From Chitinophaga pinensis (GTDB lineage: Bacteria > Bacteroidota > Bacteroidia > B-17B0 > Aurantibacillaceae): DNA of 64,000 bases. Location: contig CALRPF020000013.1 of NCBI GenBank assembly GCA_943369995.1, positions 36,422 through 100,421 of the forward strand. Direction: 5' to 3'. The position numbers were made by a program, and so were the translations under genes. Every line of letters begins with the position of its first letter. Positions within the stretch are counted from its first letter, which is position 1. Positions 44,254 through 51,674 of this stretch are shown here, piece by piece. The notes under the pieces were generated by a model that worked only from the letters and a program-made list of their open reading frames with translations, searched no databases and was not told the DNA's origin.

Positions 44254-44684
44254 TGGAAGTAAAACAAGCCATCACAAAACAAGAAGTTGAAGCGATCATC
44301 GAGCTGCGTTATAAAATCTTACGCAAACCCTGGGATCAGCCAAAAGAAACGGCTACCGATGGTTTGGAAGAAACAAGCATCAATTTTTTTATTTCAGACG
44401 AAAATGGCATTGCTCTTGCCTGTGGCAGATTACAGGAGAACGAAAATAAAGTAGGACAAATACGTTACATGGCTGTTGACGATTCGCAACAAGGAAAAGG
44501 CTTAGGCAAAAAAATAGTTCAGGCTTTAGAAAAAAAAGGAAAAGAAATCGGTCTTAAAAAGATTGAACTTCAGGCTAGAGAAAATGCCGTAGAATTTTAT
44601 AAAAGCAACGGTTACGCTATAAAAGAAAAATCTTTTTTACTCTGGGGTATCATTCAGCATTATTTAATGGAAAAAGACTTGTAG
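44253..44684 (+). CDS. GNAT family N-acetyltransferase
   Basis: LRYKILRKP, QIRYMAV...QQGKGLG, A..FY...GY. Confidence 0.9.
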   Translation: MEVKQAITKQEVEAIIELRYKILRKPWDQPKETATDGLEETSINFFISDENGIALACGRLQENENKVGQIRYMAVDDSQQGKGLGKKIVQALEKKGKEIGLKKIELQARENAVEFYKSNGYAIKEKSFLLWGIIQHYLMEKDL

Positions 44685-44728
44685 ATAGTGGGCTGCGAGG
44701 CACAATTCTAAATTAAAAAAATAATTCG

Positions 44729-44736
44729 TATATTTG
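44729..44736 (+). promoter_or_regulatory. -7 element for the uORF-czcA-czcB unit
   Basis: TATATTTG matches TAnnTTTG; it overlaps the ORF-track TTG start, so the GTG at 44740 is preferred. Confidence 0.55.
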
Positions 44737-44739
44737 CAT

Positions 44740-45126
44740 GTGCTTAAGAAGTATTCAATAATAATTTTATTTCTTTTTGCTTATACAATTGTATTTGCGC
44801 ATAGCATTATTCCTCACCATCATCACGACGAAAATCATCATATGGAGCAAGCTAACCATCATGATGGTGACGCTGATGAAAGCCTGGCACATGAGTTTGG
44901 AAATTACATTCATTCGGTTAATACAGCCGATGTATATCAGAAACCCGATGTTGAGACAGATAATAATATAATAGCAACAGTTTACCTTGTTGCTACGTTT
45001 AATTTTAATATCCATTCCGCTCAAAAAGCGCCTCCCATAGTCACGCTCTCAAACGACTGTATTCCTCTTGCTCAGCACTGCCTTTCAACCAAAGGCTTAA
45101 GAGCTCCCCCATTTTCATTAAGTTAA
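44740..45126 (+). CDS. His-rich leader protein with C-terminal RAPP motif (candidate translation-arrest uORF)
   Basis: 128 aa from the GTG; hydrophobic N-terminus, HSIIPHHHH cluster, GLRAPP at 45094-45111; 69 nt upstream of czcA. Confidence 0.75.
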   Translation: MLKKYSIIILFLFAYTIVFAHSIIPHHHHDENHHMEQANHHDGDADESLAHEFGNYIHSVNTADVYQKPDVETDNNIIATVYLVATFNFNIHSAQKAPPIVTLSNDCIPLAQHCLSTKGLRAPPFSLS

Positions 45127-45176
45127 GCAGTTAGCTGCTTTGTTACATTCTCTTTGAGAATATTTTTCTCTTTTTT
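45125..45176 (+). promoter_or_regulatory. Hairpins between the uORF and czcA (possible attenuator)
   Basis: AAGCAG-ttag-CTGCTT (45125-45140); ATTCTC-ttt-GAGAAT versus the alternative GAGAA-tattt-TTCTC followed by T6. Confidence 0.4.
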
Positions 45177-45195
45177 AAAACTTAATTAAAGTAAA

Positions 45196-48100
45196 ATGCT
45201 TAATAAAATTATTGCGTTCTCTATAAAGAACAAATTAATCGTTGGCTTATTTGTTTTGGCCCTTATAGGCTATGGAAGCTATGAGATTACAAAATTACCT
45301 ATTGATGCCGTGCCGGACATAACCGATAACCAGGTGCAGGTAATTACTGTTACACCATCATTGGGTGCTGCCGATGTGGAAAGATTAATTACCTTTCCAA
45401 TAGAACAGGCCAACAGTAATATTCCGGGCCTAAGAGAGATTCGCAGCTTTTCACGATTCGGCCTATCATTAATTACTATCGTATTTGATGATGATGTAGA
45501 TATCTATTGGGCACGACAACAAGTAACCGAACGATTAAAAACAGCGGAGCAACAAATCCCAAAAGGTATTGGCTCACCCGAGTTAGCGCCCGTTACTACA
45601 GGTTTAGGAGAGATCTATCAATATGTTTTAAGACCAAAGCCCGGGTACGAAACAAAATACACCGACATTGAATTACGAAGCATTCAGGATTGGATTGTAA
45701 AGCGTCAGCTAATCAGTGTTAAAGGCGTAGCAGATGTAAGCAGCTTCGGAGGTAAAGTGAAGCAATATGAAATAGCTGTTAATCCGGCTACACTTAAATC
45801 CTACAGCATTACTATCAACGATGTATTTACAGCACTGGAAAAAAATAATGAAAATACAGGTGGTGCTTATATTGAAAAAGCCTCCACTGTTTTATATATC
45901 CGTGCAGAGGGTTTAATTGGAAACATTGATGACATAAAAAATATCGTTGTAAAAAACACATCTAACGGAACACCCTTATTATTAAATGACGTTGCCGAAG
46001 TAAGAACAGGAAATGCTACGCGCTACGGAGCTATTACTTATAATGATGAAGGAGAAGTTGCCGGAGCGGTAGTAATGATGTTAAAAGGTGGCAATAGCAG
46101 TAGAGTAATTAGTGATGTAAAAGAAAAAATAATTCAGATTCAAAAAACATTGCCTGAAGGAGTTGTGCTAGAGCCATTTCTAGACCGCACCAAAATGGTA
46201 AACAGCGCCATCGGAACTGTTACAAAAAATTTATTGGAGGGTGCATTAATTGTAATTCTAATATTAGTTTTATTCCTGGGCAATTTGAGGGCAGGTTTTA
46301 TTGTTGCTTCTGTTATTCCATTATCCATGTTGTTTGCAGTTATTATGATGAACATGTTTGGTGTAAGCGGAAACCTGATGAGTTTAGGCGCGCTGGATTT
46401 TGGGCTGATAGTTGACGGTGCCGTAATTATTGTAGAGGCTTGTATGTTTCAATTGCATATTTCCAGGCAGAATAAAATTACGCAGTTACAGATGGATGAT
46501 ATTGTTTATAACACTTCTGCCCGAATGAGGAATGCGGCTGTATTTGGTGAGCTGATCATATTAGCAGTTTATCTTCCGATTTTTACGCTTGAGGGAATAG
46601 AAGGAAAAATGTTTAAACCAATGGCTCAAACGGTTGCGTTTGCTTTATTAGGAGCATTCATTCTATCATTAACATACATCCCAATGGTGAGTGCTTTATT
46701 TCTAAGCAAAAACACATCTCATAAAAAAAATATTTCAGATCGCATCATGGAGAAATTGGAAATAATCCATCACAGTTATTTATCCAGAGTATTAACTATC
46801 CCAAAAACAATCATTAGCAGTGTTGTTATCCTTTTTATTATTTCAATGATCATTTTTTCAACCCTAGGCGGAGAGTTCATTCCTTCTTTACCCGAAGGTG
46901 ATTTTGCCGTGGAAACACGTGTGTTAACCGGAAGTAATTTAACCACCTCTTCTGAAGCCATAATGAAATCAGCACACATTTTAAAAAACAAATTTCCCGA
47001 AATAGAAAAAATAGTTGGTAAAACAGGTAGTGGCGAAATACCAACCGATCCCATGCCAATGGAAGCATCAGACATGATGATTATTTTAAAAGATAAATCC
47101 GAATGGACTTCAGCAAAAACGTGGGATGAGCTTTCAAAAAAAATGAGTGAAGCATTAAAAGATGTACCGGGCGTTACTTACAGCTTTCAATTTCCGGTGG
47201 CAATGCGCTTTAATGAATTAATGACAGGCTCTAAGCAGGATGTGGTTTGTAAAATATTCGGTGAAAATTTAGACACACTTTCAAAATACTCAAAAGTGTT
47301 GGGCTCAATTGCCGAAAAAGTAGAGGGCGCAAAAGATGTATATGTAGAACCCATTGATGGTTTACCACAGTTAATAATAACTTATAACCGTAAATTGATT
47401 GCGCAATTCGGTTTAAATATACAGGATATTAATAAGGTTGTTAATACTGCATTTGCCGGGCAAAGCAGCGGCATGGTATATGAAGATGAAAAACGTTTTA
47501 ACCTCGTGGTTCGACTTGCCGGAGAAAGGCGTCAGAATCTGGAAGACGTGCAAAATCTTTTGATCTTAACGCCGCAGGGCACTCAAATTCCTTTGCAACA
47601 GGTTGCAAATGTTTCTATACAGCAAAGCATCAATCAAATTCAAAGGGATGATGCAAAGCGCAGGATTATTGTGGGCTTTAATGTAAAAGGCAGAGACGTG
47701 CAAAGCATTGTTGAAGATTTACAAAAAGAAATTGAAAAAATAAAAATGCCAACTGGTTACTATGTAACTTATGGTGGAGCCTTTGAAAATTTAGTAGCTG
47801 CAAAAAAACGATTGTCTATTGCTGTTCCTGTTTCATTACTTCTGATCTTCTTTTTATTGTATTTCGCTTTTAAATCTGTGAGGCAGGGCTTGCTCATTTA
47901 TTCAGCAATTCCACTTTCTGCAATAGGTGGCATTCTTTTTCTGGCATTAAGAGGTATGCCTTTTAGCATAAGTGCTGGTATTGGTTTTATTGCTTTGTTT
48001 GGGGTTGCTGTTCTTAATGGTATTATGTTAATATCAGAATACAACCGTATTAAAAAAAGCGGCGCAACAGATCTAAAGCAAATAGTTTTAGAAGGCACAA

Positions 48101-49530
48101 AGCAACGTTTACGTCCTGTATTAATGACTGCCTTTGTTGCGTCGCTTGGTTTCCTGCCAATGGCGTTAAGCAACGATGCCGGAGCCGAAGTGCAGAGACC
48201 TTTAGCAACAGTTGTAATTGGCGGTTTGCTCATTGCTACATTTCTAACCTTGTTTGTTTTACCTATACTTTACATGTTGTTTGAAAAAAAGGTATTTGAA
48301 AAAAACAATAAAATCGCTACAACGTCTGTAATACTTCTAATGTTCGTTTCAGTTCAAAACATAAATGCACAGCAGTCAATTACATTAAAAGCTGCTATTG
48401 ATACGGCAATAAAAAATAATTTACGGGTTAAGAATGAAAAGCTAAATGCCGAGTACCAGAAAATATTAAAATCTACAACAGTTGATATTCCGCAAACCAA
48501 CGTTACCGGAGAATACGGGCAGATCAATTCTATTTATAAAGACACGAAGTTTGGCATCTCTCAATCACTTAATTTTCCAATTGTATATGCTAAACGCAAA
48601 ACTTTACAAAACGAAAACTATAAAAGTTATATGCTAAATGTTGCCGTGCGCGAATGTGAACTAAAAAAACAAGTAAGCGACGAATTTTATGTGCTGCATT
48701 ATTTACTGCAAAAGCAGAAGATTCTTTTAAAGAACGATAGTGTTTATGCGGTTTTCTTACAAAATGCCAATTTACGTTTTTTAAAAGGTGAAAGTAATAT
48801 CTTGGAGAAAACAACCGCAGAAACACAACGCGGACAAATAGCCATACAGCTAAATCAATTAAAAAATGATATAGAGATCGTGCAACTTCAGTTTCAGTTT
48901 TTGCTGAACAGTACAACTGTTTTTACTCCGTCTGCAGATTCGTTTAAAATGGAATTCACAGGCACGTCTGATGTTTCTGGTTTTAGCGATCATCCGCAGA
49001 TAAAGATTTTGCAGCAGCAAAAACAAGTATCACTAACGAATACGCGACTGGAAAGATCAAAGCTTCTACCCGATCTTATTTTTGGGTACAATAATCAAAG
49101 CATACGGGGCGTTGGCGCCGACAATGTTTTATATTCAGCGTCATCCCGCTTCAGTTCGGTGCATATAGGAATTGGGCTTCCTTTATTTTTTGGTTCTCAA
49201 AAAGCCAGGATCAATTCTTCAAAAACGCTCCAATTGATTTCTGAAAATAATTACCAGTTAGGTATGCAAACATTAAATACCGAATATCAAAAGGCTTTTA
49301 AACAATACCAGGCAAATACAATGGCGGTAAAATATTTTGAAGACACCGCTTTAGATAATGCAGAAACTATAATAAAAACGGCTAATCAGCAATTTGCCAA
49401 CGGCGCTATCAATTACCTTGAATGGACTATGCTGATTAATAATGCCGCCAGTATCCAAAGCGATTACGCCGACGCTTTAAAAAATCTCAACCGCTCTGTT
49501 ATTCAATTAAACTATTTAATCTCAAAGTAA
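45196..49530 (+). CDS. czcA: CusA/CzcA heavy-metal RND transporter fused to a C-terminal TolC-like outer-membrane factor
   Basis: LPIDAVPD, GALDFGLIVDGAVIIVE, AVLNG, RLRPVLMTA, VQRPLATVVIGG; about 386-aa OMF-like tail (ITLKAAIDTAIKNN, GAINYLE); 1444 aa. Confidence 0.93.
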   Translation: MLNKIIAFSIKNKLIVGLFVLALIGYGSYEITKLPIDAVPDITDNQVQVITVTPSLGAADVERLITFPIEQANSNIPGLREIRSFSRFGLSLITIVFDDDVDIYWARQQVTERLKTAEQQIPKGIGSPELAPVTTGLGEIYQYVLRPKPGYETKYTDIELRSIQDWIVKRQLISVKGVADVSSFGGKVKQYEIAVNPATLKSYSITINDVFTALEKNNENTGGAYIEKASTVLYIRAEGLIGNIDDIKNIVVKNTSNGTPLLLNDVAEVRTGNATRYGAITYNDEGEVAGAVVMMLKGGNSSRVISDVKEKIIQIQKTLPEGVVLEPFLDRTKMVNSAIGTVTKNLLEGALIVILILVLFLGNLRAGFIVASVIPLSMLFAVIMMNMFGVSGNLMSLGALDFGLIVDGAVIIVEACMFQLHISRQNKITQLQMDDIVYNTSARMRNAAVFGELIILAVYLPIFTLEGIEGKMFKPMAQTVAFALLGAFILSLTYIPMVSALFLSKNTSHKKNISDRIMEKLEIIHHSYLSRVLTIPKTIISSVVILFIISMIIFSTLGGEFIPSLPEGDFAVETRVLTGSNLTTSSEAIMKSAHILKNKFPEIEKIVGKTGSGEIPTDPMPMEASDMMIILKDKSEWTSAKTWDELSKKMSEALKDVPGVTYSFQFPVAMRFNELMTGSKQDVVCKIFGENLDTLSKYSKVLGSIAEKVEGAKDVYVEPIDGLPQLIITYNRKLIAQFGLNIQDINKVVNTAFAGQSSGMVYEDEKRFNLVVRLAGERRQNLEDVQNLLILTPQGTQIPLQQVANVSIQQSINQIQRDDAKRRIIVGFNVKGRDVQSIVEDLQKEIEKIKMPTGYYVTYGGAFENLVAAKKRLSIAVPVSLLLIFFLLYFAFKSVRQGLLIYSAIPLSAIGGILFLALRGMPFSISAGIGFIALFGVAVLNGIMLISEYNRIKKSGATDLKQIVLEGTKQRLRPVLMTAFVASLGFLPMALSNDAGAEVQRPLATVVIGGLLIATFLTLFVLPILYMLFEKKVFEKNNKIATTSVILLMFVSVQNINAQQSITLKAAIDTAIKNNLRVKNEKLNAEYQKILKSTTVDIPQTNVTGEYGQINSIYKDTKFGISQSLNFPIVYAKRKTLQNENYKSYMLNVAVRECELKKQVSDEFYVLHYLLQKQKILLKNDSVYAVFLQNANLRFLKGESNILEKTTAETQRGQIAIQLNQLKNDIEIVQLQFQFLLNSTTVFTPSADSFKMEFTGTSDVSGFSDHPQIKILQQQKQVSLTNTRLERSKLLPDLIFGYNNQSIRGVGADNVLYSASSRFSSVHIGIGLPLFFGSQKARINSSKTLQLISENNYQLGMQTLNTEYQKAFKQYQANTMAVKYFEDTALDNAETIIKTANQQFANGAINYLEWTMLINNAASIQSDYADALKNLNRSVIQLNYLISK

Positions 49531-49537
49531 TACAATT

Positions 49538-50668
49538 ATGAAAAAATATATAATTCTATCCATTTTTATTACTGCTTTTATGGCCTGTAATAATAAAGAG
49601 GAAAAAACCGAAACTGAAATTCCTGCAAATGAAAATGTTGTTGAGTTAACCGAGGCACAGTTTAAAAATTCAAAAATAGAAACCGGTAAGATCGAACGAA
49701 AATCAATTTCCTCATTGTTAAAGGTGAATGGTAAAATTGATGTGCCTCCGCAAAATATGGTATCAGTAAGTGCTCCATTAGGCGGTTACTTACGATCAAC
49801 TAAACTTTTGGAGGGCATGCACATTAGTAAAGGCGAAGTGATAGCGAGTATGGAGGATCAACAATATATCCAACTGCAGCAGGATTATTTAACCGCTAAA
49901 GCGCATCTGATATCTATTGAAAAAGAATATAACCGTCAAAAAGAATTAAACCAAAGCAAAGCTAGCAGCGATAAGGTATTTGAAAGTGCGCAGGCAGAAT
50001 ATTCATCACAGAAAGTAATGGTAAAATCTTTATCTGAAAAATTAAAGCTCATTGGTATCAATCCGGATAACTTAAACGAAACTAATATTTCAAGAAGTAT
50101 TAATGTAACCTCACCTATTGACGGATATGTTTCGGCAGTTAAAATGAATATCGGAAAATATGCAAATCCTACAGATGTATTATTTGAATTGGTAAATCCT
50201 GCGGATATTCATTTGGCTTTAACGGTTTTTGAAAAAGATCTCGATAAACTATTTATAGGACAAAAAATAGTAGCTTACAACAATAACCCCGAAAGTAAAA
50301 GATACAATTGCGAGATCATTTTAATTGGTAAGGACATTTCCTCCGAAAGGGCTGTAACGGTTCATTGTCATTTCATGCAATACGATAAATCGTTAATTCC
50401 CGGCATGTTCATGAATGCAGAAGTTGAAGTATCAACTAACGAAGCCTTTGTTGTTCCTAATAACGCGATTGTGTTGTTTGAAAGTAAACAATACGTTTTT
50501 ACACAAACATCGGATAAGAAATTTGAAATACAGGAAGTAACCACCCAAAACACAGAAAATGGTTTTACACAGGTAACCTTTTTAAATAATAAAAATATGG
50601 AGAATGAACTATTTGTTACCAAAGGAGCATACACCTTATTAATGAAAATGAAAAACACCGAAAAATAA
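49538..50668 (+). CDS. czcB: RND periplasmic adaptor (CzcB-like lipoprotein)
   Basis: Lipobox FMAC, VSAPLGG, coiled-coil hairpin, SPIDG.V, LIPGMF. Confidence 0.9.
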   Translation: MKKYIILSIFITAFMACNNKEEKTETEIPANENVVELTEAQFKNSKIETGKIERKSISSLLKVNGKIDVPPQNMVSVSAPLGGYLRSTKLLEGMHISKGEVIASMEDQQYIQLQQDYLTAKAHLISIEKEYNRQKELNQSKASSDKVFESAQAEYSSQKVMVKSLSEKLKLIGINPDNLNETNISRSINVTSPIDGYVSAVKMNIGKYANPTDVLFELVNPADIHLALTVFEKDLDKLFIGQKIVAYNNNPESKRYNCEIILIGKDISSERAVTVHCHFMQYDKSLIPGMFMNAEVEVSTNEAFVVPNNAIVLFESKQYVFTQTSDKKFEIQEVTTQNTENGFTQVTFLNNKNMENELFVTKGAYTLLMKMKNTEK

Positions 50669-50804: not shown

Positions 50805-51674
50805 TTATTCATCGGGCTCTATATGAATTAAAATATCCGCTAATTGAGGCATTCTATCCAATAAATGATCTTTAAGCTCGTGTGATATTAAGTGTCCTTC
50901 ACTCACTGTTATTTTCGCATTTACAATTACATGAAGATCGACATGGTATTTCATTCCGGTTTTCCTAACGTAGCATTTTTCCGTATCAATAATTCCCTTA
51001 ACTGTTTTTGATTCAACTCTTATTTCAGCAACAATATCATCATATAAATGCTCATCCATTATCTCGCCAAGCGCCGGCCTAAAAATTAAATAACTATTAT
51101 ATAAAATAACACCCGAAGCAACAAGTGCCGCCCAATCATCAGCTGTTTCATAACCTTTTCCAAAAATTAACGCAATAGATATCCCTATAAAAGCTGTAAC
51201 GGAAGTAATTGCATCACTTCTATGATGCCATGCATCTGCTTTTAAAGAAGAACTGTTGGTTTGTTTACTTTTAGCCAATACAATTCTGTAAAAAGTTTCT
51301 TTTATACCGATGATCACTGCCAAAATAATTAACGTGTATGCTTTGGGAAGTTCATGCGGAGTTTTTATATTTTGAATGCTTGTATAAGCAATAATAATTG
51401 CAGAGGCCATTAAAAACCCTACCACTAAAAAAGTAACTAAGGGTTCTGCCCTTCCATGTCCGTATGGATGATTCTCATCTGCAGGACGATTAGAATACTT
51501 TATACCGAACAAAACGAGTACGGAAGAAAAAATATCAGATGTAGACTCTATAGCATCGGCAATTAAAGCATACGAATTTCCGAAATAACCGGTAACACCT
51601 TTAAGTAAAGCGAGACACGAATTGCCAACAATACTCAGATAGGTTGCTTTTATAGCTTTTTGTTCTGCGCTCAT
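50805..51674 (-). CDS. Cation diffusion facilitator family transporter
   Basis: ALIADAIESTSD, HPYGHGRAE, ADAWHHRSD, DLHV, HIEP. Confidence 0.93.
   Translation of the reverse strand: MSAEQKAIKATYLSIVGNSCLALLKGVTGYFGNSYALIADAIESTSDIFSSVLVLFGIKYSNRPADENHPYGHGRAEPLVTFLVVGFLMASAIIIAYTSIQNIKTPHELPKAYTLIILAVIIGIKETFYRIVLAKSKQTNSSSLKADAWHHRSDAITSVTAFIGISIALIFGKGYETADDWAALVASGVILYNSYLIFRPALGEIMDEHLYDDIVAEIRVESKTVKGIIDTEKCYVRKTGMKYHVDLHVIVNAKITVSEGHLISHELKDHLLDRMPQLADILIHIEPDE

Follow-up and report, generated by a model that had tools for sequence, protein, structure and literature searches.

The locus examined here raises the question of why a small open reading frame (ORF) for a histidine-rich peptide stands directly ahead of czcA, the permease gene of a presumed heavy-metal efflux operon. 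The source DNA, called the window below, is a stretch of 64,000 nt from a Chitinophaga pinensis assembly (GCA_943369995.1, contig CALRPF020000013.1, positions 36,422–100,421); coordinates are those of the window and of its forward strand unless stated otherwise. The original prediction for this DNA held that an exported His-rich peptide carrying an Arg-Ala-Pro-Pro (RAPP) motif controls the czc pump in cis. The core of that proposal has strong comparative support, but metal sensing and the direction of the response are steps that we only infer. Judged from sequence comparison, the leader cistron of the czcA(-OEP)-czcB operon probably encodes a cis-acting, co-translational metal-sensing arrest peptide, because its terminal motif is kept at the level of the peptide, a histidine is held at a fixed distance from that motif, the ORF occupies a constant position at czc operons, no compact fold is predicted, and CutF and CruR provide precedents.

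A conserved family of His-rich leader peptides

The leader ORF occupies 44740..45126, ends in TAA at 45124–45126 and, on translation, could begin at TTG 44734 or GTG 44740. Homologues start with MLKKYSII and their Met aligns with the window GTG, which gives a product of 128 aa; TTG 44734 was rejected as a start because it lies inside the -7 promoter box and because the homologues align to the GTG. The product, taken here as a divergent DUF6769-family peptide, is a candidate for both arrest and sensing. All of the features predicted for it were present: the length of 128 aa, the hydrophobic N-terminus, 11 His within residues 21–58, a C-x6-C pair near the end (C107 and C114) and RAPP at residues 121–124. 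The distance of 69 nt to czcA and the -7 box immediately 5' of the GTG were likewise confirmed in the sequence.

Residues 1–20 (44740..44799) form a putative signal peptide or signal anchor, with a KK pair, a hydrophobic core (residues 5–20) and the sequence VFA|HS, in which the -3/-1 rule, taken alone, would place signal cleavage after A20. AlphaFold, supplied with a 107-sequence alignment, predicted a helix at residues 2–23 (predicted local distance difference test, pLDDT, 88–96), and the N-terminal pattern AY.IVLAHS is conserved among relatives. The adjoining His/Asp/Glu-rich segment (residues 21–58, 44800..44913) is a candidate periplasmic metal-binding sensor, with His at positions 21, 26–29, 33, 34, 40, 41, 51 and 58, or 11 in 38 residues; His accounts for 27% of the segment, Asp for 12% and Glu for 8%, and its pLDDT is low (52–63). 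A moderately hydrophobic segment at residues 77–89 (44968..45006) lies 32–44 residues ahead of the predicted stall site. A second helix was predicted at residues 75–86, and residues 75–120 reach a pLDDT of 74–84. The codons of the hydrophobic patch also contain a 9-bp hairpin, TAGCAACAG…CTTGTTGCTA, at 44972–44995, which was flagged by a terminator scan.

Further downstream are an internal Pro-Pro (P98-P99, 45031..45036), situated within K-A-P-P at -23 from R121, the putative arrest motif R121-A-P-P124 (45100..45111), and a tail of four codons, F-S-L-S, followed by TAA (45112..45126). Published toeprints of RAPP peptides (PMC12992588) would put a stalled ribosome here with Pro123 (45106–45108) in the P site and Pro124 (45109–45111) in the A site. 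The model of the peptide as a whole contained no compact domain beyond the N-terminal helix (predicted template modelling score, pTM, 0.28).

Relatives were collected with a word-indexed search, which returned 46 close relatives (the close set, A1), and with a profile hidden Markov model search of 1.84 billion representatives, which returned 1386 clusters (50% identity) at E <= 1e-3, nearly all of them 120–150 aa long and matched over their full length. To these were added 89 further loci from genome and metagenome contigs. Conservation of RAPP in orthologues upstream of czc genes had been named beforehand as a test, and R-[A/G]-P-P was kept in 141 of the best 150 of the 1386 representatives (RAPP in 96, RGPP in 45), in each of these 2–7 residues from the C-terminus. 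Because the family comprises 1386 clusters and the motif stands near the C-terminus in so many of the best 150, the observation exceeds chance by far. The remaining representatives carried KAPP (five) or RAPP with a longer tail (two), or were truncated (two). RGSP characterises a small clade and RSPP a single locus; members with KAPP or RGSP include representatives P0070, P0097, P0133, P0163 and P0190 and loci L014, L016, L027, L050 and L053.

Within the close set, H58, L115, G119 and R121-A-P-P124 are invariant. The diverse set (A2), with a mean column identity of 21%, retains H21, H26, P123 and P124 without exception and P25, H28, H58 and R121 at >= 90%. Across the family, conservation is strongest at an N-terminal H..PHHH motif, at H58 and at the terminal R-[A/G]-P-P. 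At the motif all six Arg codons, all Ala and Gly codons and all four Pro codons occur across loci, and since the synonymous codons are all used, the constraint lies on the peptide and not on the RNA. Saturation mutagenesis of ApdA and ApdP found the Arg irreplaceable, exchange of Ala for Gly fully permissive or better, and Ser partly permissive, the A/G exchange being the only fully permissive one; RAPP and RGPP halt the ribosomes of E. coli as well as those of B. subtilis when placed in several different peptides, and EF-P does not relieve the arrest (PMC12992588). As far as substitutions in the alignment can tell, the spectrum seen in the family matches this mutagenesis of RAPP arrest peptides.

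The spacing around the motif is also constrained. Of 82 unique loci, 80 have a tail of 1–6 codons after the motif, most often of 4. Over 101 sequences, H58 precedes the Arg of RAPP by 63.6 ± 1.5 residues, with 75 of the sequences at 63–65, and the distance from HHHH to H58 is looser, at 38.4 ± 4.6 residues. Residues 61–115, which lie between these landmarks, are weakly conserved in sequence and fixed in length. A hydropathy peak is found family-wide at -42..-32 from the Arg of RAPP, and a Pro-Pro stands at -24 ± 1 or -18 ± 1 from the same Arg in 99 of 142 family representatives; this semi-conserved pair may touch the tunnel or mark a second pause site that depends on EF-P. No Cys column is conserved in the diverse set (mean of 1.6 Cys per protein), and the C-x6-C pair, noted at first near the end of the peptide, proved to be restricted to the closest clade and so is not the sensor. 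In CruR the spacing from CXXC to RAPP is conserved and functionally required (PMC9426467). At arrest, H58 of the window peptide would stand some 65 residues from the peptidyl-transferase centre, roughly the span of tunnel plus translocon, which would place this invariant His where SecYEG opens to the periplasm, the His cluster having already emerged.

The leader peptide was then placed among annotated families. Pfam DUF6769 (PF20558) aligns to it over positions 2–130 of 130 at 21.3–21.5 bits, against a gathering cut-off of 27, and 51 of 107 diverse relatives match DUF6769 at E <= 0.1 (best E 7.6e-10). These matches place the leader ORF on a divergent, His-rich branch of DUF6769; the shared features are the end-to-end match, an N-terminal PHHHH and a C-terminal RAPP. 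The entries annotated as DUF6769 in the source table of Fujiwara 2025 are Cys-rich, whereas the window branch is His-rich and Cys-poor. The DUF2946 protein CruR had been named as an analogue, and here no homology to it beyond the RAPP motif could be detected: none of the 107 relatives matches DUF2946 at E <= 0.1, and hhalign against seven DUF2946 sequences tabulated in a publication reached no further than the RAPP tail (the last 19 columns; probability 7.5%), with power limited by the small DUF2946 alignment. Detectable homology to DUF2946, CruR or CutF was rejected on these grounds, at that low power. An NCBIfam search of the window peptide gave no match, and assignment to the CzcI family (NCBIfam NF045614) was rejected, the window peptide being unmatched and 4 of 107 relatives giving weak hits (E about 0.005). 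Among 301 genomes sampled from the phylum, 22 contain members of the leader family, and 19 of 144 genera are represented; the genome of the window has one copy.

Promoter, intergenic RNA and the pump operon

A Bacteroidota sigma-A -7 box, TATATTTG (44729..44736), matches TAnnTTTG and is separated from GTG 44740 by 3 nt. In Flavobacterium this box lies at -12..-5, with 4–5 nt between it and the transcription start site (TSS) (PMC6847099). About 38 of 89 family loci have a TAnnTTTG box that begins 11–17 nt ahead of the start codon, and among loci L001–L098 the start codon is mostly GTG where the box is 12–13 nt upstream and mostly ATG where it is 14–17 nt upstream. By this comparison of positions, the predominance of GTG with the box at -12/-13 fits a purine TSS at the first base of the codon and suggests leaderless 5'-GUG mRNAs in Bacteroidota; the mRNAs of the family look leaderless or nearly so. 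Leaders of <= 10 nt make up only 13% in F. johnsoniae, and leaderless mRNAs 5.5% in F. psychrophilum (PMC6847099, PMC9723704).

The 69-nt intergenic region between the leader stop and the czcA ATG (45196) contains two hairpins. Hairpin 1 (45125..45140, AAGCAG-TTAG-CTGCTT) has a 5' arm that starts inside the stop codon and a folding free energy (dG) of -6.1, compared with -2.0 in shuffled sequences (p 0.03). Hairpin 2 and its U-rich run (45147..45176) comprise ATTCTC-TTT-GAGAAT at 45147–45161 and the U-rich stretch at 45162–45176; the ATTCTC/GAGAAT hairpin recurs in L090, L092 and L098, and equivalents of other sequence were found in most relatives. When the first 30 nt of 62 intergenic regions were folded, the mean z was -1.29 and 39% reached p <= 0.05; the stem begins at stop-codon position 0–3 in 29 of the 39 regions with a dG of -3 or lower. 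For 64 unique spacers compared with dinucleotide shuffles, the mean z was -1.55, and 37.5% fell below -2. A layout recurs in which the stop-codon hairpin is followed 5–10 nt on by a second hairpin, then by a U-run and an AU-rich stretch of 25–35 nt before the downstream gene. The pairing profile has both hairpins in register with the stop codon and the AU-rich stretch slightly less paired than in shuffles. Spacers are pyrimidine-rich, and 89% of them contain more C than G.

The support for the hairpins comes from per-sequence folding, not from covariation: MAFFT with RNAalifold on the region from the stop to +48 gave no consensus pairs, the hairpins lying out of register in that alignment. An Rfam scan of 44300–45500, covering for example the NiCo/czcD riboswitch, returned nothing at E <= 1, and the overall fold of 45085–45230 was no better than shuffles (z -0.55), so that only local elements stand out. 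Two other arrangements were rejected. A GAGAA (45156–60)/TTCTC (45166–70) hairpin appears in the minimum free energy fold, but comparative data favour ATTCTC (45147–52) paired with GAGAAT (45156–61). A trp-type attenuator would need pairing of hairpin 1, through its 3' arm, with the 5' arm of hairpin 2; both arms are pyrimidine-rich and lack complementarity.

The minimum free energy fold also pairs the leader tail (45111–45124) with the translation-initiation region of czcA (-17..-4, 45179..45192) in a predicted helix, P1 (duplex p about 0.02 versus shuffles). In the computed fold, a ribosome stalled at RAPP cuts the cost of opening this initiation region from 6.4 to 4.2 kcal/mol, and similar unmasking is predicted in L006 and in the RGSP clade (3.5–6.5 kcal/mol). 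It is also in the RGSP clade that the leader tail is predicted to mask the downstream start most strongly. As a rule for the whole family, pairing of the tail with the initiation region was rejected, being confined to a subset and giving a weak family signal.

The presumed regulated gene, czcA (45196..49530), encodes a fusion of a CusA/CzcA-family resistance-nodulation-division (RND) permease with an OEP (TolC-like) domain, 1444 aa in all. Its product matches TIGR00914 at 1144 bits (cut-off 701) and, in Pfam, ACR_tran and OEP. The sequence of its fourth transmembrane helix, DFGLIVDGAVIIVEA, fits the D-x5-D-x6-E signature reported for divalent-cation CzcA (Goldberg 1999; Nies 2003). The ACR_tran domain (residues 5–1029) and the OEP/TolC-like domain (residues 1264–1442) are joined by a hydrophobic, signal-like segment, …KIATTSVILLMFVSVQNINAQQ…, and the same permease-OEP fusion, of 1439–1452 aa, is encoded in relatives L001–L004, L090, L097 and L098. 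Cleavage or an internal start might allow one CzcA-OEP polypeptide to serve both membranes. A czcB-like gene for a periplasmic adaptor (49538..50668; HlyD_D23, TIGR01730) follows. Convergent to the end of the czc operon is a cation diffusion facilitator (CDF; CzcD-like) efflux gene at 50805–51674 on the reverse strand, which makes the locus a small cluster for resistance to divalent metals.

The window czcA is the sole CusA/CzcA-family match above cut-off in its genome. The neighbouring genes encode PheT, a CoA-transferase, a GNAT protein, the CDF transporter, a glycosyltransferase and an aminotransferase. The statement that no metal-responsive regulator lies in the window held for response regulators (91 domains in the genome, none of them in the window) and for the genes within about 5 kb on either side, among which no regulator was found, with MerR, ArsR and similar families unscreened. 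Among the 89 further loci the leader ORF heads a czc cluster wherever enough DNA was available. It does so in three layouts: the next gene is czcA (spacer of 49–128 nt), czcB, or an OEP gene that czcA follows at 1.5–2.4 kb.

A proposed co-translational arrest mechanism and its rivals

In the proposed mechanism the transcript would begin at or beside the GTG, as the abutting -7 box suggests, and the ribosome would load at the 5' end. The KK pair and the hydrophobic N-terminus would target the chain to the Sec translocon, and residues 21–58 would be threaded into the periplasm. By analogy with other RAPP/RGPP peptides, elongation would arrest at R121-A-P-P124, the P site holding Pro123 and the A site Pro124. 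The ruler of 63–64 residues would then bring H58 near the outer mouth of the translocon and residues 77–89 to a point immediately beyond the ribosome tunnel. A divalent metal bound to the exported His residues would alter the pulling force on the chain and hence the dwell time of the arrest, which would set the expression of czcA. Zn, Co, Cd or Ni is the likely metal because the pump is of the CzcA type and a CDF gene lies next to it.

Dwell time could be read out at this locus by either of two routes. The folding model makes a CutF-like unmasking of the czcA start region a reasonable possibility, if one short of probable. An arrested ribosome lying over about 45094–45122 would free 45179–45192 from its pairing with 45111–45124, and metal-prolonged arrest would switch the pump on, because accessibility of the start site is a main determinant of initiation where Shine-Dalgarno sequences are lacking. 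Attenuation through the two hairpins is nearly as likely at this locus.

Several observations weigh against this account. KAPP in 5 of 150 representatives and the RGSP of one clade are forms for which the published mutagenesis predicts weak or no arrest. Pairing between the leader tail and the initiation region is significant only in a subset of loci and is absent from most relatives, including the closest (L090), and the unmasking signal across the family is weak (Wilcoxon p 0.04). A ribosome that terminates normally at the stop codon would also open the tail pairing, so that dwell time alone would distinguish the two states. The window box begins at -11 from the GTG and not at the canonical -12/-13; a TSS at G44740 would need a spacing of 3 nt, and both the TSS and the GTG start are uncertain for that reason. 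Lastly, one relative (P0016, 52% identical; L095:424-2201) precedes a 150-aa ORF and a HupE/UreJ_2 gene, with no exporter. As HupE/UreJ_2 is of the Ni/Co uptake type, the same sensor may be wired there to other metal genes. This context parallels the His-only CutF-like clusters beside HupE/UreJ in the survey of Ozturk 2023.

The same arrest sensor might instead have a transcriptional output, with release from arrest switching the pump on through a hairpin pause or termination module, either intrinsic or Rho-dependent as in CruR. Periplasmic metal would pull on the chain and relieve the arrest, as copper does for CruR, to allow read-through into czcA; only an escaped ribosome, reaching the stop codon behind the polymerase, would melt hairpin 1 and suppress termination. 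Much in the spacers is compatible with such a switch. Hairpins are their most widespread RNA feature, and hairpin 1 starts in the stop codon, just past the leading edge of a RAPP-arrested ribosome. A U-run lies immediately 3' of hairpin 2 in the window and in L001, L002, L006 and L042, and the excess of C over G is the signature that was used to find the Rho terminator of CruR. A leaderless transcript would guarantee a pioneer ribosome coupled to the polymerase, and the distance from RAPP to the stop is held at 1–6 codons. The stems, however, are short (5–7 bp) and AU-rich, and in several relatives the U-run lies 8–14 nt from hairpin 2 and at a constant distance from the downstream ATG, so that it may belong to the initiation region. 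The 3' arm of the first hairpin, moreover, finds no alternative partner in the 5' arm of the second, and sequence-based alignment gave no consensus structure. On balance we regard a release switch of this kind as possible but doubtful. A more specific version, in which an independently evolved, Cys-free 'histidine ruler' sensor of periplasmic Zn/Co/Cd/Ni works with a so far undescribed release-ON logic through the stop-codon hairpin on a leaderless mRNA, in a phylum without Shine-Dalgarno sequences, is rather unlikely to hold in all its parts.

Two further explanations would dispense with the arrest sensor. The peptide could be an accessory pump protein that acts in trans, as a His-rich chaperone, a buffer or a CzcI-like modulator, with RAPP slowing its own synthesis or serving a structural role. 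The exported His-rich segment does resemble a periplasmic metal-binding protein, residues 75–120 have pLDDT values of 74–84, 4 of 107 relatives match CzcI weakly (E 0.005), and Cupriavidus encodes, upstream of czcCBA, the small protein CzcI, for which a regulatory role has been proposed (PMC9973294). This explanation is nevertheless improbable, given a pTM of 0.28 with no compact domain, a region (residues 61–115) that is fixed in length but poorly conserved in sequence, and only 1–6 residues after RAPP. The strongest constraint falls on a motif that bacterial proteomes otherwise avoid as ribosome-arresting (PMC12992588), and CzcI lacks a C-terminal proline motif according to Ozturk 2023. It is more improbable still that the leader arrests without sensing metal, the stall being constitutive or reporting Sec or membrane-insertion capacity, and any control by metal falling to an unlinked regulator. 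The classical RAPP/RAGP arrest peptides (SecM, ApdA, ApdP and ApcA) do monitor export and not ligands, and the 91 response-regulator domains elsewhere in the genome would leave room for such a regulator. Yet the genes downstream of the family are for metal efflux and never for Sec or YidC, a segment with 27% His and invariant His residues whose distance from RAPP is fixed are otherwise hard to explain, and ligand-dependent arrest exists in both CruR and CutF.

Relation to known metal-responsive and export-monitoring leaders

The metal-sensing arrest leader favoured here belongs to a known type of system, and its branch has been catalogued; experiments on members of this family, phylum or pump class are lacking so far. 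The suggestion that the gating of an exporter rather than an importer would be new does not survive comparison with the literature, as CutF already gates detoxification, and both Ozturk 2023 and Fujiwara 2025 list ORFs upstream of CusA/CzcA, including some from Bacteroidota. For the ruler from H58 to RAPP, the Cys-free sensor, the leaderless design and the stop-codon hairpin, no description was found in the literature compared. If the favoured reading is confirmed, it would provide a first tested case on three counts: metal sensing by a nascent chain in Bacteroidota, such sensing for an RND heavy-metal pump, and a sensor built on His alone. It would then explain the induction of czc pumps in many environmental and gut Bacteroidota that have no adjacent two-component system, and 'hypothetical proteins' resembling DUF6769 could be annotated as leader peptides. 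The system is also relevant to the control that a stalled ribosome exerts on a downstream gene where the phylum lacks Shine-Dalgarno sequences, and the combination of a 63–64-residue ruler with a leaderless design offers simple mutational tests of force-dependent arrest release across a membrane.

Two surveys have recorded leaders of this kind. Ozturk 2023 collected 5,334 'CutF-like' proteins, 19% of them from Bacteroidota (40% after normalisation), which adjoin genes for OEP, CusA/CzcA and CzcB and include His-only clusters beside HupE/UreJ (PMC9973294). That survey defined its proteins by a length of <150 aa, PP in the last 15 residues, an N-terminal signal peptide and a co-oriented gene within 1 kb; the window leader has 128 aa, PP at 123–124, a hydrophobic N-terminus and czcA 69 nt downstream, and falls within this definition. 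In the source tables of Fujiwara 2025, CusA/CzcA is an enriched downstream class for small ORFs with RAPP or RGPP, and the entries include a 'DUF6769 family protein' upstream of RND adaptor genes (PMC12992588). The main text of that paper leaves efflux unmentioned and describes copper-related upstream ORFs (uORFs) as lacking in Bacteroidota (PMC12992588); the DUF6769 data stand only in its appendix and source tables, with no member tested.

The closest functional parallel is CutF of Rhodobacter capsulatus (cutFOG, DUF2946), an exported Cu sensor that acts only in cis and in which metal-prolonged stalling opens a stem-loop hiding cutO's ribosome-binding site (PMC9973294; bioRxiv 10.1101/2025.02.05.636593). 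CutF and the window leader share a plan: a small exported peptide directly 5' of a metal-detoxification gene, a segment of metal-binding type and a C-terminal proline motif. CutF has cysteines in CxxxC that form disulfides, an EF-P-sensitive PPP, a masked Shine-Dalgarno sequence and a multicopper oxidase as its target. The window leader, in contrast, has a His sensor without conserved Cys, RAPP/RGPP (which is EF-P-refractory elsewhere), an apparently leaderless mRNA and an RND pump for divalent cations.

In CruR (Bp2923, DUF2946) of Bordetella pertussis, which acts post-transcriptionally by way of arrest, copper relieves the arrest and leads to Rho termination before the gene of a TonB-dependent importer (PMC9426467), and a toeprint at its Pro-Pro has been confirmed (PMC12992588). 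Both CruR and the window leader are exported products of a uORF at the head of a metal operon, with a near-terminal RAPP (3 residues from the end in CruR) and a conserved spacing between sensor and RAPP. They differ in that CruR carries its CXXC 45 residues from RAPP, ahead of a 162-nt GC-rich spacer and an importer, whereas in the window the His residue lies 63–64 residues from RAPP, the spacer is 69 nt long, AU-rich and contains two hairpins, and the target is an exporter. Of the features that define CruR and CutF, the window leader thus has the fixed distance from sensor to stall, and lacks a DUF2946 match and a conserved Cys motif.

With ApdA, ApdP, ApcA and SecM the window leader has in common an R-A/G-P-P (or RAGP) core near the C-terminus and its position as a small secretory protein directly upstream of another gene. 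These arrest peptides control secA, secDF or yidC, whereas the window leader precedes metal-efflux genes and contains a segment of metal-binding type. It thus shows the terminal motif, the hydrophobic N-terminus and the co-oriented upstream position of the RAPP arrest class outside that class's usual context of localisation monitoring, and its G-L-R-A-P-P resembles the G-I-R-A-G-P of SecM.

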